DNA from: Herminiimonas fonticola
Lineage (GTDB): Bacteria; Pseudomonadota; Gammaproteobacteria; Burkholderiales; Burkholderiaceae_D
Direction of reading: 5' to 3'
Assembly: GCF_040395855.1 (NCBI RefSeq)
Contig: NZ_JBEBPO010000002.1
Span: forward strand, 2,761 to 66,760
Length of the DNA: 64,000 nucleotides
The notes below the pieces were generated by a model, which saw nothing but the letters and a program-made list of their open reading frames with translations, did no database searches and was not told the DNA's origin. The translations under genes were made by a program, and so were the position numbers. This document shows, piece after piece, positions 3,467 through 58,109 of the stretch (within the stretch, counting starts at the first letter, position 1; each line of letters begins with the position of its first letter).

Positions 3467-4753
3467 TTATGCCGGCAATGTGACCCTGAAGCAGCTGCCC
3501 GCTTCATCGCGGGCGACGTACACGACGTCGCCGCCATGCCGGCGCGCGATTTGCCGTACCAGGCTCAAGCCTAGACCAACCCCGCCTTCGCGTTCGCTGG
3601 CACCGGCTACGCGATAAAAGGGTTCGAAAATATTTTCCCGTTCTGCCACCGGCACGCCGGGCCCGCCATCGCACACCTGTAATAGAACAGTGCTGTCCTG
3701 TGCTGTCGCCAGGGTCACGGTAATCGGCGTGTCATTGCCGTAGCGCTTGGCATTTTCCAGCAGATTGCGCACCAGGCGACGCAGCAGCCGTGCATCGCCA
3801 GACAACTCGATGGCCTGTGCATCCAGTTGCGCACCGATGCGCGCGCATTCTTCCGCGACCAGTGCAGTCAGATCTATTGTTTCAAATGTCTGTGCAGTGT
3901 CGGGGGTAGCGTCGAGCCGGCTGGCCAGCAAAATCTCATCGATCAATTGATCCAGTTCGCCGATGTTGCGCTGCAGTTCGCTACGGATTTCCGGTTGCGC
4001 CTGCGGGCCCATCAATTCAATCGCCATGCGTATGCGTGCCAGCGGCGAGCGCAATTCATGCGAGGCATTTGCCAGCAAGGCTTTCTGCGCATCGACCAGC
4101 GCTTCTATGCGTGCCGCCGAACGATTGAAGCTGCTTGCCAGGCGACCTACTTCATCCTGTCCTTCCACTGCAATACGGGTCGACAATTGCCCGGCTCCCA
4201 GCGCTTCGACACTGGTTTGCAGGCGCTCCAGCCGGCGCGTCAGGCGCCGCACAATCGGATACGAGCCTATACCTATCGCCAGCCCGATCAGGATCAGCGT
4301 GGTGAAAAAACTGAAAGGTGGTTTGCGTCGGCCCGGATGCTGGCCGACCAGCCAGCGATCGTCCGGTAATTTGACGGCGAACACCGGCGGCCCGCCGCCC
4401 ATCCAGCCGCTGACGGTTTGCGCTGCATCCAGCGGCGGCAGCTCACGTCCGGCAGTTGCGATTTTTTCACGCTTGGCTGAATACAGCGCCAAGTCGGCGC
4501 GCATGCGCGATTGCCAGCGTGTAAGCGCCTGCTGTTGTTCTTCGTTGCTGGCTTCGGGAGGCGGCAATATATCGGAGGCAATGGCGGCAAACGATTCCAG
4601 GCTGGGGCCGATTTGTCGTGCGTCTGCATTGATGCGCCACGCGGCAGCGAATAGCAGGCCGGCGACAGTCAGGCTGATCAGCATCGCCAGATAAATGCGG
4701 ATATACAAACGGTGCGACCAGTTGAAACGTCCGCGCGTGCTTGATTCAGACAT
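3467..4753 (-). CDS. Sensor histidine kinase (2 TM, HAMP, HisKA, HATPase)
   Basis: H-box 'ASHELRSPLARI', 'NLLENA', 'DGGPG', 'GLGLSL'. Start moved to ATG 4753, which overlaps the RR stop; the ORF track extends to 4903. Confidence 0.9.
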   Translation of the reverse strand: MSESSTRGRFNWSHRLYIRIYLAMLISLTVAGLLFAAAWRINADARQIGPSLESFAAIASDILPPPEASNEEQQQALTRWQSRMRADLALYSAKREKIATAGRELPPLDAAQTVSGWMGGGPPVFAVKLPDDRWLVGQHPGRRKPPFSFFTTLILIGLAIGIGSYPIVRRLTRRLERLQTSVEALGAGQLSTRIAVEGQDEVGRLASSFNRSAARIEALVDAQKALLANASHELRSPLARIRMAIELMGPQAQPEIRSELQRNIGELDQLIDEILLASRLDATPDTAQTFETIDLTALVAEECARIGAQLDAQAIELSGDARLLRRLVRNLLENAKRYGNDTPITVTLATAQDSTVLLQVCDGGPGVPVAERENIFEPFYRVAGASEREGGVGLGLSLVRQIARRHGGDVVYVARDEAGSCFRVTLPA

Positions 4754-5465
4754 CTTGCGCCTTTGCAAATACATAACCGGCACCGCGTACGGTGATGATG
4801 CGTTTGGGTTGTTTAGGATCGTCTTCGATGGCGGCGCGCAGGCGGCCGATGTGCACATCGATGGAACGATCGAAGGCTTCCAGCGGTTCGCCCTTGACGG
4901 CATCCATCAGTTGTTCGCGCGACAGTACGCGTCCGGCGCGCTCGGCCATGGCTGCCAACAGATTGAATTGATAGGAAGTAACCGGCTTGTCCTGATCGTC
5001 GAGGCGAATCACGCGCGCATCGAGGTCGATTTCGAGACGACCGAAGCGCAGCACGTGGCCGTCGGTGGCTGGCGCGCCCTGCTGGCGTCGCAGCACGGCG
5101 CGCAAACGTGCCAGCAATTCGCGCGGCTCGAACGGTTTCGGAATGTAATCGTCGGCGCCGAGCTCAAGTCCGACCACGCGATCCATGGGGTCGCCCTTGG
5201 CGGTCAGCATGACGATGGGCAGGGTATTGAGCGGCGCCGGAAACGTGCGTATCTGGCGGCACACATCAAGCCCGTCTGCATCCGGCAGCATCAGGTCCAG
5301 CAGGACGATGGCGAAAGATGCGCTCGCGCTTGCATGCTGCAACTGCTGCAGTCCCTCGGCGGCGGTGGCGCTGTGTTGCACATCGAAGCCGTTCTGGCCA
5401 AGATAGGTGGCGACCATCGCTGCCAGGCGCTGGTCGTCTTCAATCATGAGTAGGCGTTGATTCAT
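4746..5465 (-). CDS. OmpR-family response regulator
   Basis: 'LLMIEDD', 'LDLMLPD', 'MLTAKGD', 'DDYIPKPF', winged helix 'DRSIDVHIGRLR'; start taken at MNQRLL. Confidence 0.9.
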   Translation of the reverse strand: MNQRLLMIEDDQRLAAMVATYLGQNGFDVQHSATAAEGLQQLQHASASASFAIVLLDLMLPDADGLDVCRQIRTFPAPLNTLPIVMLTAKGDPMDRVVGLELGADDYIPKPFEPRELLARLRAVLRRQQGAPATDGHVLRFGRLEIDLDARVIRLDDQDKPVTSYQFNLLAAMAERAGRVLSREQLMDAVKGEPLEAFDRSIDVHIGRLRAAIEDDPKQPKRIITVRGAGYVFAKAQDV

Positions 5466-5644
5466 CTGTCTAGTGTAATTCCATTTCGCAGGCAAAACGA
5501 CAGGGGCCTGGTGAAACACTGCCGCCATGACTTGCATTGCAGAATAAAAGAGCGGCAATGCATGCGAACGTGCAGCACACTGCCGCGCACAGCATTTGGA
5601 GCGATATAACGACATCGCTTCAAACGCTGCGGCGGCAGAATGTC

Positions 5645-6262
5645 TTACTTCTGCGCTTTTGCTGCTTCAGCTGCGGGCTTGTGCTCATGACCATGATGCG
5701 AGCGTGGGCCGTGATTGAAGCCGTGACCGAAACCACGCTTATGTTTTTTCATTTCTTCCACCGCCTTGACGCGTTGTGCCGGCGTCAGCACTTCTGCTGC
5801 ATCGGCAAATGCCTGCGTTACCCGACGCGAACGCTGGTCGGCCAGTTGCTGCTCAGTCTGGCGCAGTTGCTCAAGCGCCGTGCGATCGATGGTGGCGGCA
5901 GACAACAGCTTGCTGCGTTGTGCATGCAGGTCGCGGCCTTGCTGACGCAAGGGTTGCAGATCGGCGAAGGCAGATTTGGCGATTGCGCCCAACCTGGTTT
6001 TCTGTTCCGCGGTGGCATCCGGCACCAGACGATGCAGCATGCGCTCAAAACGTTTTTCCGCATGTTCCGGATTCATTTGTCCGTGTTTGCCATCGTGGCG
6101 CTCGTGCTTCTCGACCTTGGCCGGTGCGGCCTGATTGTCGGCAGCATAGCTGATGCCGGCCAGCGAGATGGCGCCGACGATGACGGCGCTTGCTCCTGCC
6201 ATCAACAGGCGACGGCTGCGCGAGCCGGATGACGATACGGATTGTGTGGTGTGCTTGTTCAT
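5645..6262 (-). CDS. Spy/CpxP-family periplasmic protein
   Basis: Signal peptide, LTxxQ-like motifs ('ATAEQK', 'VLTPAQR'), His-rich ends; first gene of the Spy-RR-HK unit. Confidence 0.8.
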   Translation of the reverse strand: MNKHTTQSVSSSGSRSRRLLMAGASAVIVGAISLAGISYAADNQAAPAKVEKHERHDGKHGQMNPEHAEKRFERMLHRLVPDATAEQKTRLGAIAKSAFADLQPLRQQGRDLHAQRSKLLSAATIDRTALEQLRQTEQQLADQRSRRVTQAFADAAEVLTPAQRVKAVEEMKKHKRGFGHGFNHGPRSHHGHEHKPAAEAAKAQK

Positions 6263-6344
6263 TGAAACTCCTTTGTTTCGGTTGGTGCCTGTGCAGGCAT
6301 GTTGTTACTTTAGGTGTGCTCTGTTGAGATAGCGCATGCGAGCG

Positions 6345-6359
6345 GTAAAGTTATGTAAA
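6345..6359. promoter_or_regulatory. CpxR-type direct repeat GTAAA-N5-GTAAA
   Basis: Exact match GTAAAGTTATGTAAA, 83 bp upstream of the Spy/CpxP start. Confidence 0.65.
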
Positions 6360-6367
6360 GGACGGGA

Positions 6368-6425
6368 TACGCGTTGTTGGTGCATGGATGGGGGACTGGT
6401 GGTGGATGTGCACCAGTTTGGTTAT
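6368..6425 (+). promoter_or_regulatory. Two NtrC-like enhancer sites
   Basis: TACGCGT-TGT-TGGTGCA (6368-6384, 10/14) and TGCACCA-GTT-TGGTTAT (6409-6425, 11/14) against TGCACCA-N3-TGGTGCA; centres 41 bp apart, upstream of a sigma54 promoter. Confidence 0.55.
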
Positions 6426-6474
6426 CGATACGGTCCGTCGTGACGCAGGCGGAGATGCGTGATGGACAGTTCTC

Positions 6475-6490
6475 TGGCATAGCTTTTGCA
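6475..6490 (+). promoter_or_regulatory. sigma54 (-24/-12) promoter
   Basis: TGGCAT-AGCTT-TTGCA with exact GG-N10-GC spacing, 71 bp upstream of ATG 6562. Confidence 0.75.
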
Positions 6491-6561
6491 CTTGATGAAT
6501 ATCATCGGATCTTGTGCATTGCATGTCGTTGGGCTGTTTCAAAAAATAACAGGGAATAAAA

Positions 6562-7359
6562 ATGAACAGACGTCACTTTCTTCTGGCCGGCGTGGCGGCA
6601 AGCGGAAGTTTTTCCGGTTTTTCCCGTGCCGATTCCTCCATCGTCCATATCAACGACGCGATCAACAAATCCGGTCGCCAGCGCATGCTGTCGCAACGCC
6701 TGGCGAAAAGCTATTTGCAGATTGGTCAGGAAGTAGACCTGGCTCGTTCCAGCAAGATATTCAATGTCTCGCTTGCCTTGTTCGAGCGTCAGTTGGGTGA
6801 ACTGGAAGCGTTTGCACCGACGGCGGAGTGCCGGGCGACGCTAACCGAACTGAGGAAGACATGGGGGCGTTACAAGGGTGCATTGATCAGCAATGCGCCG
6901 AATCGGCTGGATGCCAAGGCGGTGATGGCAATCAGCGAGGAAGTGCTGGCGCTGGCGCATACAGTCACCGTACAACTGGAAAAATCGTCGGGTACTGCCG
7001 CCGCACATCTGGTCAATATTTCCGGACGTCAGCGCATGCTGTCGCAGCGCATGGCAAAGTTTTATCAGGCCATCAATTGGGGCGTGGCATCGCCGGATGC
7101 CTTGATGAATCTGGCCAAGGCGCGCGAGGAATTTCTGCGTGCGATGAAGGAGTTGTCGGATTCGCCAAAAAACACTTCAGCCATCAAGCAGGAAATCACG
7201 CTGGCGCAACAGCAATGGCTCTTCTTTGACCAGGCGCTGAAAAGCAGCGCCGACAGCAATGAGAGCAAGTTTCGCTTCGCCACCAATGTAGCGACCACCA
7301 GCGAAAGAATTCTGGAGACGATGGATAGAATTACAGGGATGTACGAGCAGTTGAGCTAA
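6562..7359 (+). CDS. Tat-exported protein with two PilJ/NarX-type (P-box) sensor domains and no output domain
   Basis: Twin-arginine 'NRRHFL'; internal repeat 'INKSGRQRMLSQRLAK' / 'VNISGRQRMLSQRMAK'; no second TM, HAMP or kinase domain. Confidence 0.8.
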   Translation: MNRRHFLLAGVAASGSFSGFSRADSSIVHINDAINKSGRQRMLSQRLAKSYLQIGQEVDLARSSKIFNVSLALFERQLGELEAFAPTAECRATLTELRKTWGRYKGALISNAPNRLDAKAVMAISEEVLALAHTVTVQLEKSSGTAAAHLVNISGRQRMLSQRMAKFYQAINWGVASPDALMNLAKAREEFLRAMKELSDSPKNTSAIKQEITLAQQQWLFFDQALKSSADSNESKFRFATNVATTSERILETMDRITGMYEQLS

Positions 7360-57365: not shown

Positions 57366-58109
57366 TTACTTCGGCGGTGTGCGCGCGAAGACCAGGTTGG
57401 TGACGCGTACTGCACCATGACGTTTCAGCGTGATGGCAATTTCGTTCAGGGTGACGCCGGTAGTCATCACGTCATCCACGACACCTACATGCCGTCCCCG
57501 TACCAGTAAGTCGGCATTGGCCGGCAAGACAAATGCATGGCGCATGTTGCGATGACGTTCGGCCGGATGCAGCATCGACTGCATCAGCGTGTCGCGCGTA
57601 CGTTCCAGCAATTGCGGTGCCAGCGGTATGGCAATCGCCCGTGCCAAAGGTTTGGCAATTTCCAGCGCCTGATTGAAGCCGCGTTCGCTCAGTCTCTTTT
57701 CTCCCAGCGGTACGGCGGTCAGCAAGGCGGGCATGGCGAAGGCCGGTTCGCGCAATATCGCATCGCGCAGCATGCGCGCAAACAGCGGCGCCAGTGCCAG
57801 CCGGTTGCCGAATTTGAGGGCCAGCACCAGATGATCGACAGGCGCGGCGTAATCGCCGGCCACGATGGTGGCGTCGAAGGCTGGCGGATCGCCAAGACAG
57901 GCGCCGCAACGTTGTATTGGCGCACCGGTATGCGGAAGCGGGGATGCGCATTGCAGGCAGCGCAGCGGAGTCTGATTGAAGAAGCGCTGCTCGCAATCGT
58001 GGCACAGTGACTGTCTGCTATTGAAGCCGCACAATGCGCATGACGATGGAAGGGCGGTCGGCAGGTGCCGAATGAAATGACGAGACCAATCGAAAAAACG
58101 ATGCAGCAT
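57366..58109 (-). CDS. comF: ComF-family phosphoribosyltransferase-like protein
   Basis: N-terminal CxxC zinc fingers, 'RGFNQA', 'VVDDVMTTGVT'. Confidence 0.9.
   Translation of the reverse strand: MLHRFFDWSRHFIRHLPTALPSSCALCGFNSRQSLCHDCEQRFFNQTPLRCLQCASPLPHTGAPIQRCGACLGDPPAFDATIVAGDYAAPVDHLVLALKFGNRLALAPLFARMLRDAILREPAFAMPALLTAVPLGEKRLSERGFNQALEIAKPLARAIAIPLAPQLLERTRDTLMQSMLHPAERHRNMRHAFVLPANADLLVRGRHVGVVDDVMTTGVTLNEIAITLKRHGAVRVTNLVFARTPPK

Follow-up and report, generated by a model that had tools for sequence, protein, structure and literature searches.

How NarX, NarQ, McpN and NasR sense nitrate has been worked out well, and in all four proteins the receptor bundle is wired to an output. 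The McpN ligand-binding domain (LBD) from Pseudomonas aeruginosa (PA2788, PDB 6GCV) is a PF13675 four-helix bundle present once per chain; one nitrate lies on the dimer axis between two subunits, R61 of each subunit is essential, the N-box reads [IVL]-[ND]-x-A-G-x-Q-R-M-L-[ST]-Q, and nitrate is not bound by PilJ domains that have no N-box, the PilJ chemoreceptor's two-domain LBD among them (PMC6381276). The sensor domains of NarX and NarQ (3EZH, 5IJI), whose ligand class is nitrate/nitrite, belong to homodimeric sensor kinases with transmembrane (TM) helices, HAMP and kinase modules. NasR, which belongs to nitrate assimilation, is cytoplasmic and fused to an ANTAR RNA-binding output; its NIT domain (4AKK, Pfam PF08376) consists of two four-helix bundles in one chain, associating like NarX or Tar homodimers (PMC12591593), and it requires one arginine per bundle, R50 and R176 (PMC9581486). 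Here we analyze a 64,000-nucleotide stretch of Herminiimonas fonticola DNA (the window), in which an open reading frame (ORF) at 6562-7359 encodes a 265-amino-acid (aa) protein that appears to be the same receptor in a free, exported, single-chain and output-less form, hereafter the stand-alone double-PilJ protein. Neither the domain and its ligand chemistry nor the pseudo-dimer principle (NIT) or the promoter type is new. However, the secreted output-less double-PilJ form, though common, is undescribed in the literature that we searched, where no paper deals with stand-alone or tandem N-box PilJ proteins and mentions of PF13675 refer to NarX or to methyl-accepting chemotaxis proteins (MCPs). 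An earlier reading of the window, made from the sequence only, had likewise known of no characterized example. We consider it fairly probable that the protein is a periplasmic single-chain nitrate/nitrite-binding protein, made with the NtrC/sigma-54 nitrate-assimilation regulon and capturing or retaining the oxyanion for import.

Domains, predicted structure and putative ligand site

The features of the gene and its product are as follows.

6562-7359 (+), coding sequence of the 265-aa stand-alone double-PilJ protein (ORF list, Pfam PilJ)
6562-6630 (+), predicted signal peptide, aa 1-23, MNRRHFLLAGVAASGSFSGFSRA followed by D (mature start DSS), with a twin-arginine motif
6649-6990 (+), bundle 1 (PilJ domain 1), aa 30-143, AlphaFold2 helices 30-55, 60-84, 88-109 and 115-143
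6661-6696 (+), N-box 1, INKSGRQRMLSQ, with R41 equivalent to McpN R61
6997-7347 (+), bundle 2 (PilJ domain 2), aa 146-262, AlphaFold2 helices 146-173, 180-199, 206-227 and 233-262
7012-7047 (+), N-box 2, VNISGRQRMLSQ, with R158 equivalent to McpN R61

At E<=0.01, Pfam assigned PilJ (PF13675) alone to the protein, matching two stretches of it with 80.7 bits (gathering cut-off 26.6), and a profile search of the genome picked up the two halves separately (45.6 and 42.5 bits). The Pfam scan found no HAMP, HisKA, HATPase or MCPsignal domain in the 265 residues, no NCBIfam model matched them, and the NIT model PF08376 had no match either in the protein (E<=0.01) or elsewhere in the genome. These results agree with the sequence-only reading, which had described a protein made of two nitrate-sensor domains and devoid of HAMP, kinase and MCP domains, and had proposed the PilJ model for both halves. 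The repeated motif that it had noted, N-x-S-G-R-Q-R-M-L-S-Q-R, is indeed present twice, at aa 35-46 and aa 152-163, within the stretches INKSGRQRMLSQR (aa 34-46) and VNISGRQRMLSQR (aa 151-163). The 32% identity between the two halves (E 5e-9) suggests that they arose by internal duplication.

The N-terminus begins MNRRHFLL, with an N-R-R-H-F-L-L motif, and reads SRA before the D of the predicted mature start. The twin-arginine motif noted earlier is seen in part of the family: RR-x-F-L is conserved in the genus and in its nearest relatives, but the Pfam TAT_signal model stays below threshold on the 265-aa protein (16.0 bits, cut-off 22.7), TIGR01409 does not match it while giving 23.0 bits (cut-off 16.7) for one orthologue, and more distant homologues carry Sec-type signal peptides. 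The leader is without a lipobox cysteine, so the protein should not be a lipoprotein. Judging from these leaders, a periplasmic location would be the feature common to the family and the twin-arginine translocation (Tat) route a local variation of the Herminiimonas clade, where export is probably by Tat.

The AlphaFold2 model, run on an alignment of 57 sequences, has a predicted local distance difference test score (pLDDT) of 91 and a predicted template-modelling score (pTM) of 0.86. The stretch with a pLDDT below 50 is exactly residues 1-23, as expected of a signal peptide, and the remainder forms eight long helices arranged as two four-helix bundles. When compared with the PDB by Foldseek, each bundle matched the McpN LBD 6GCV (target-normalized TM-score 0.71-0.73, root-mean-square deviation 3.0 A, probability 1.00), and the best superposition of the whole chain was on the NIT domain of NasR, 4AKK_B (query-normalized TM-score, TMq, 0.57 over 268 columns, probability 0.97). 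The LBD of the PilJ type IV pilus chemoreceptor (8WDF, 7ZJR), which also has two consecutive PilJ domains per chain, is membrane-anchored with an MCP output and superposes poorly on the whole model (8WDF, TMq 0.26). At the level of sequence, the family profile retrieved McpN best among PDB entries (E 3e-9), followed by PilJ (E 1e-4) and NarQ (E 0.011); the PDB profile search returned no solved structure of the double-PilJ family itself. The single-chain pseudo-dimer of two PilJ bundles that had been anticipated from the sequence is thus supported by the predicted structure. The protein is predicted to share with NasR NIT the packing of two bundles in one chain like a NarX dimer, and shares with NarX/NarQ the homologous P-box/N-box helix in a four-helix bundle; it differs from McpN, a membrane-anchored protein with a chemoreceptor signalling domain, in having two fused domains and in being soluble, with no output.

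Both N-boxes agree with the McpN pattern at 11 of the 12 positions, the key arginine included. The remaining position has Ser in both boxes where McpN has the ligand-contacting Ala59, so a strict PROSITE-style N-box pattern fails; the N-box of one orthologue (L003) reads INKAGRQRMLSQ. In our family alignment (A1), R41 does not vary and the conservation of R158 is at least 90%. The core G-x-[QL]-R-M occurs twice in 109 of the 129 stand-alone family representatives, and the strict N-box occurs in both halves of 45 and in one half of 53 of these 129. It is a reasonable inference from the alignment and the model that R41 and R158 form one nitrate/nitrite site within the single-chain pseudo-dimer, as an arginine from each bundle does in NasR (PMC9581486).

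The same data bear on the idea that the ligand is something else, for example another small anion, or that the protein has a non-sensing periplasmic role and the N-box-like motif is structural. The Ala-to-Ser departure at a contact position in both boxes speaks for it, as do the failure of the two-domain PilJ chemoreceptor LBD to bind nitrate (PMC6381276) and the absence of a nitrate-gene neighbour in the genus. However, that LBD is without an N-box (PMC6381276) and has another global fold, both halves keep the N-box arginine and the QRMLSQ core across the family, and homologues recur inside nas, nar and nir clusters (see below). We therefore regard another ligand as very unlikely.

The predicted sigma-54 promoter and its putative activator

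The 299-bp region upstream of the gene contains the following elements.

6263-6561, intergenic spacer of 299 bp, between a minus-strand spy/cpxP-like operon and the plus-strand ORF
6377-6384 (+), putative distal upstream activator half-site, TTGGTGCA, the conserved portion of the 17-mer 6368-6384
6409-6425 (+), putative proximal upstream activator site, TGCACCAGTTTGGTTAT, an imperfect NtrC-type dyad
6475-6490 (+), predicted sigma-54 (-24/-12) promoter, TGGCATAGCTTTTGCA, with a predicted +1 near 6501
6551-6555 (+), ribosome-binding site AGGGA, 6 nt before the ATG

The sequence TGGCATAGCTTTTGCA is an exact match to TGGCAY-N5-TTGCW with the GG-N10-GC spacing, a pattern found twice in the window against 0.40 expected matches and 23 times in the 2.55 Mb genome. 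For phylogenetic footprinting we aligned 20 orthologous upstream regions, which come from related loci and so are not 20 independent observations. GG-N10-GC is kept in 20/20 loci and the pattern TGG[CT]A-N7-TGC in 19/20; the element lies 72-95 nt before the ATG, and a ribosome-binding block, ATAAyAAGGAATAAAAATG, is conserved as well, while the promoter flanks and the sequence between the conserved blocks have diverged. As rpoN is also encoded (Sigma54_DBD, 223.6 bits, contig C1), the earlier assignment of a sigma-54 promoter with exact -24/-12 spacing is supported. Sigma-54-like elements persist in some neighbouring genera and are missing further away, suggesting that this mode of control is lineage-specific. 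The second TGGCAY-N5-TTGCW match of the window, TGGCACCGCAATTGCT at 57607-57622 (-), lies inside a ComF-like ORF (57366-58109, -) upstream of a trmL-like gene and is probably due to chance.

Two NtrC-like 17-mers had been proposed upstream of this promoter, and the footprint retains a part of each. The left half of the 17-mer at 6368-6384 is not conserved and only TTGGTGCA is kept; this distal element, TTGGTGC(A/G), occurs in 16/20 loci, 57-110 nt before the -24 TGG. At 6409-6425 the conserved portion is TGCACCAGTTTGG, which reads GCACCAnTTTGG across the orthologues, and of the two halves of the dyad the left one, GCACCA, is strong and the right one, with only TGG, is weak. Thus, a half-site TGGTGC and a GCACCA element are conserved, but the first site is only a half-site and the second an imperfect dyad. 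The spacer between the two elements varies from ~6 to ~65 nt across the loci, and the proximal GCACC lies 34, 44-45, 54-56 or 63-68 nt before the -24 TGG in the 20 orthologues, that is, in steps of one helical turn, as expected if an activator must face the sigma-54 holoenzyme.

Six bacterial enhancer-binding proteins (bEBPs) are encoded in the genome: NtrC (TIGR01818, 689.6 bits), whose gene is downstream of glnA on contig C51, NorR, PrpR, a PilR-like protein (C26) beside a PilS-like kinase, and two more on C80 and C12. The criterion for NtrC-type sites is TGCACC-N5-GGTGCA, ~60-140 nt upstream of the promoter. The glnA promoter TGGCATGGAATCTGCT, an 8/9 core, is preceded by a near-perfect dyad, TGCACATGTTTGGTGCA, which is closely related to the proximal site TGCACCAGTTTGGTTAT. 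In a genome-wide search for TGGTGC[AG] / [CT]GCACCA pairs at most 90 nt apart and followed by a sigma-54 core, paired half-sites with a 9/9 core were found at only three promoters, namely, that of the double-PilJ gene and both promoters of a divergon on contig C143. The latter serve a narK-like nitrate/nitrite transporter gene and a divergent gene starting MKKMKLVMV, which is nirB-like by comparison with the related genome G456. The amtB operons have the same half-site and sigma-54 elements in a weaker version. Since the same half-sites occur at the glnA, nirB/narK-like and amtB promoters, and since NtrC and RpoN are encoded, NtrC control of the double-PilJ gene is probable, with good support in silico. 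The protein, which had been linked to nitrogen scavenging under NtrC, is better placed in a nitrate-assimilation regulon than among general scavengers of nitrogen.

We also weighed whether the promoter is real but activated by a bEBP other than NtrC, in response to a signal other than nitrogen limitation. Three of the six bEBPs (C80, C12 and the PilR-like protein of C26) have no assigned target, and the upstream elements are variably spaced half-sites instead of two canonical 17-bp dyads, both of which would suit such an activator. On the other hand, the half-site TGGTGCA / TGCACCA matches the dyad upstream of glnA-ntrBC, a canonical NtrC target, and recurs at the nirB/narK-like and amtB promoters of the same genome; in addition, NorR, PrpR and PilR have dedicated targets and different sites. 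We consider this alternative unlikely. For NorR, a by-eye look for its consensus, GT-N7-AC / GGT-N7-ACC, found nearest candidates with 8-nt spacers only, and we rejected it as the activator.

Two loci outside the window showed further features. In the C143 divergon (C143:1-310) the 9/9 cores are TGGCATCTGTTTTGCT and TGGCATAACCCTTGCA, with the half-sites TGCACCA and TGGTGCA common to both promoters; the narK-like gene is followed by one for a PP2C/kinase protein ending in a TM helix, and in G456 the two are fused as a 1017-aa product. On contig C5 (17450-17650) a TorF-type porin-like gene before an amtB locus has a sigma-54-like promoter, TGGCATGAGTCCTGCT, with an NtrC-like dyad, GCACCAATAAAGTGC, ~125 nt upstream of it.

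The family, its nitrate-gene contexts and the possible role of the protein

The database contains >6,400 homologues of similar length, named only as 'type IV pili MCP N-terminal domain-containing' or 'NarX-like N-terminal domain-containing' proteins, with Herminiimonas supplying the top named matches. Among representatives at 50% identity, 1,818 clusters match at E<=1e-3; with the limit set at E<=1e-30 there are 228, mostly of 255-290 aa. The gene is present in 23 of the 24 genomes of the genus, in 23 of the 151 sampled genomes of the family (14/64 genera) and in 13 of the 400 genomes of the class. Such a distribution bears on the possibility, raised by the sequence-only reading itself, that the ORF is what is left of a NarX or chemoreceptor gene in decay. 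In favour of this, the orthologue has shrunk to a 108-aa fragment in one species of the genus (G013). However, the copies of the other 22 gene-carrying relatives in the genus are full-length and free of internal stops, the family is large and its members are alike in length, as the homologue and cluster counts above attest, and the gene has its own conserved promoter, ribosome-binding site and signal peptide. The remnant reading is thereby refuted, and we give it practically no credence. The fragment itself (L042, G013:C1, 4938-5264; ARQRMLLQRMARFY...) looks like a lineage-specific loss, in which the intergenic region and the spy-like gene were apparently deleted too.

Related architectures were also seen. 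Three proteins of ~500 aa (P0167, P0218 and P0239) carry the double-PilJ module as a C-terminal extension of Crp/Fnr-type regulators (cNMP_binding plus HTH_Crp_2) and are candidate one-component nitrate sensors, and three of ~760 aa (P0122, P0132 and P0140) have up to six PilJ domains; no paper on either form was found in the literature searched. The fusions suggest that the two-bundle unit acts as a self-contained module. In a gammaproteobacterial locus (L046, G386:C25, 5992-8042), two tandem double-PilJ genes, both encoding Sec-type signal peptides, adjoin an MCP gene.

A survey of homologue neighbourhoods for nas, nar and nir genes, as had been suggested, placed ~6 of the 13 contexts outside the genus in nitrogen-oxyanion loci (pilJ2 denotes the double-PilJ gene):

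G456, nirB-pilJ2-nasA, beside a divergent narK-kinase gene; homologue 54% identical
G369, nasT-nrtA-nrtB-pilJ2-nasA-like
G039 (distant Burkholderiales), narG-narH-(narJ)-narI-pilJ2-ppiC-moaA; NarH 931 bits
G268, narK-narX-narL-porin-pilJ2
G124, cluster with NirJ (626 bits) and NapC/NirT-like cytochromes
G371, NasA/NapA-like molybdoenzyme ~4 kb from the double-PilJ homologue

By our own estimate, made with no background model, nas/nar/nir clusters are a small part of a genome. Among the 151 sampled family genomes, which are related and hence not independent, NarG is encoded in 13 of the 23 with the gene versus 19 of the 128 without it; a NasA-like reductase is encoded in 22 of the 23 carriers, which is uninformative as NasA is found in 116/151 overall. 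The Herminiimonas genome itself encodes NarG (C81), NasA (C108), a narK-like carrier and an nrtD-like ATPase (C143), NarX (C65), a NasT-like ANTAR protein (C28) and a PilJ-type MCP (C3).

Taken with the structure and the promoter, these contexts suggest the following course of events. Under nitrogen limitation, NtrC would activate transcription from the sigma-54 promoter by way of the two upstream sites, so that the protein would be made together with the nirB/narK-like nitrate-assimilation genes. This would resemble mcpN, which is expressed when nitrate or nitrogen is scarce (PMC6381276). The soluble protein would be exported to the periplasm, probably via Tat in the Herminiimonas clade, and its mature chain may pack its two NarX/McpN-type four-helix bundles like the subunits of the NarX/McpN dimer, as in NasR NIT. 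This packing would bring the N-box arginines R41 and R158 together in one site for nitrate and possibly nitrite. Our best guess for the next step is that the oxyanion is captured or retained in the periplasm, supporting import for cytoplasmic reduction by Nas and Nar; the protein might in addition report oxyanion availability to a membrane partner. We favour capture for uptake because Nas and Nar reduce nitrate in the cytoplasm and because the gene co-occurs with carriers, a porin and reductases and not with sensors only. The analysis itself shows the domain content, the predicted fold, the conservation of protein and promoter, and the gene contexts; from these we infer ligand binding, the placing of the two arginines, dependence on NtrC and, most of all, what follows binding.

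Several points weigh against this capture-for-import role or its regulatory part. In the genus, no nitrate gene adjoins the double-PilJ gene, whose flanks are the spy/cpxP-like two-component operon and moeB. The N-boxes have Ser for Ala59, a half-site with an imperfect dyad stands upstream instead of two canonical NtrC sites, and three further bEBPs have no assigned target. Moreover, we know of no precedent for a four-helix-bundle protein as a transport-associated binding protein, and NarK-type carriers of the major facilitator superfamily (MFS) are, to our knowledge, not known to require binding proteins.

The chief competing explanation is that the protein is a trans-acting periplasmic co-sensor which, loaded or empty, docks on a membrane transducer and modulates its output, with no role in transport, much as solute-binding proteins or NreA work. 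The partner could be NarX, a chemoreceptor, the CpxA-like kinase encoded next to the gene, or the NarK-linked kinase/phosphatase. The fold is that of a sensor and not of a transport binding protein, and the fusion of the module to Crp/Fnr-type transcription factors indicates that it is usable as a signalling input. NarX (C65) and a PilJ-type MCP (C3) are at hand in the genome, the homologue in G268 adjoins narX-narL, and within the genus the gene is always divergent from the operon of the spy/cpxP-like gene, response regulator and histidine kinase. Nevertheless, NarX comes with a domain that binds nitrate already, outside the genus the association with the Cpx-like operon is missing, as in the syntenic copy of G039, most of the informative contexts contain enzymes and transporters (nas, nar, nir) instead of sensors, and no partner is identifiable from sequence. 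We therefore think a pure co-sensor rather unlikely and retain nitrate/nitrite capture for import as the favoured role.

NrtA, a periplasmic nitrate-binding protein that feeds a transporter, and NasS, a soluble nitrate receptor that controls a partner protein, are functional analogues. NreA, a soluble nitrate receptor controlling a partner protein (PMC8199190), is a third. These proteins have unrelated folds (class II solute-binding; GAF) and their partners are known, whereas the double-PilJ protein has no known partner. As a broader and only tentative possibility, stand-alone double-PilJ proteins may be a previously unrecognized class of periplasmic oxyanion-binding proteins built on the sensor four-helix-bundle fold, which pass nitrate/nitrite or its signal to NarK-type MFS carriers or other Nas/Nar envelope partners and are under NtrC control in this lineage. 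Its members would then serve, in the manner of binding proteins, as accessories to transporters that are believed to act on their own. With a family of ~1,800 clusters recurring in nas/nar/nir loci, the ligand and the partner, once established, would supply a missing part of nitrate assimilation and respiration in bacteria, and would tell whether a soluble accessory protein serves MFS nitrate carriers or envelope sensors. The protein would also give biosensor design a nitrate-binding scaffold that is compact and monomeric by nature, comparable to the NasR-based NitraMeter, and its promoter is a clean, phylogenetically footprinted candidate example of NtrC/sigma-54 control with helically phased activator sites in Oxalobacteraceae.

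The divergent Cpx-like operon

In the genus, the neighbours of the double-PilJ gene are the Cpx-like operon, moeB, ctpA, envC and gpmA, and a second copy in G039 is syntenic with this arrangement (gpmI-envC-ctpA-pilJ2-ampD-thiF). The features on the other side of the spacer are listed below.

3467-4903 (-), HAMP histidine kinase (CpxA-like), in the same operon as the spy/cpxP-like gene
4746-5615 (-), OmpR-type response regulator, same operon
5645-6262 (-), spy/cpxP-like gene, the first gene of the divergent operon
6307-6312 (-), TAAAGT hexamer, conserved, a putative minus-strand -10
6345-6359, CpxR-type box GTAAA-GTTAT-GTAAA, a perfect direct repeat in the spacer

Because the genes are divergent and the intergenic region contains a perfect GTAAA-N5-GTAAA box, we considered a functional tie of the double-PilJ gene to the Cpx-like operon. 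We rejected it, since the box suits the minus-strand operon's own promoter and the tie is missing outside the genus. The box is kept in all aligned orthologous loci, ~33 nt upstream of TAAAGT on the minus strand, and the two elements are probably the autoregulated promoter of this three-gene operon. In that case, two promoters of different sigma classes would stand back to back in the spacer. Within the operon, the longest ORF of the histidine kinase overlaps that of the response regulator by ~157 nt; translation of the kinase probably begins at an internal Met, close to MSESSTRGRF.

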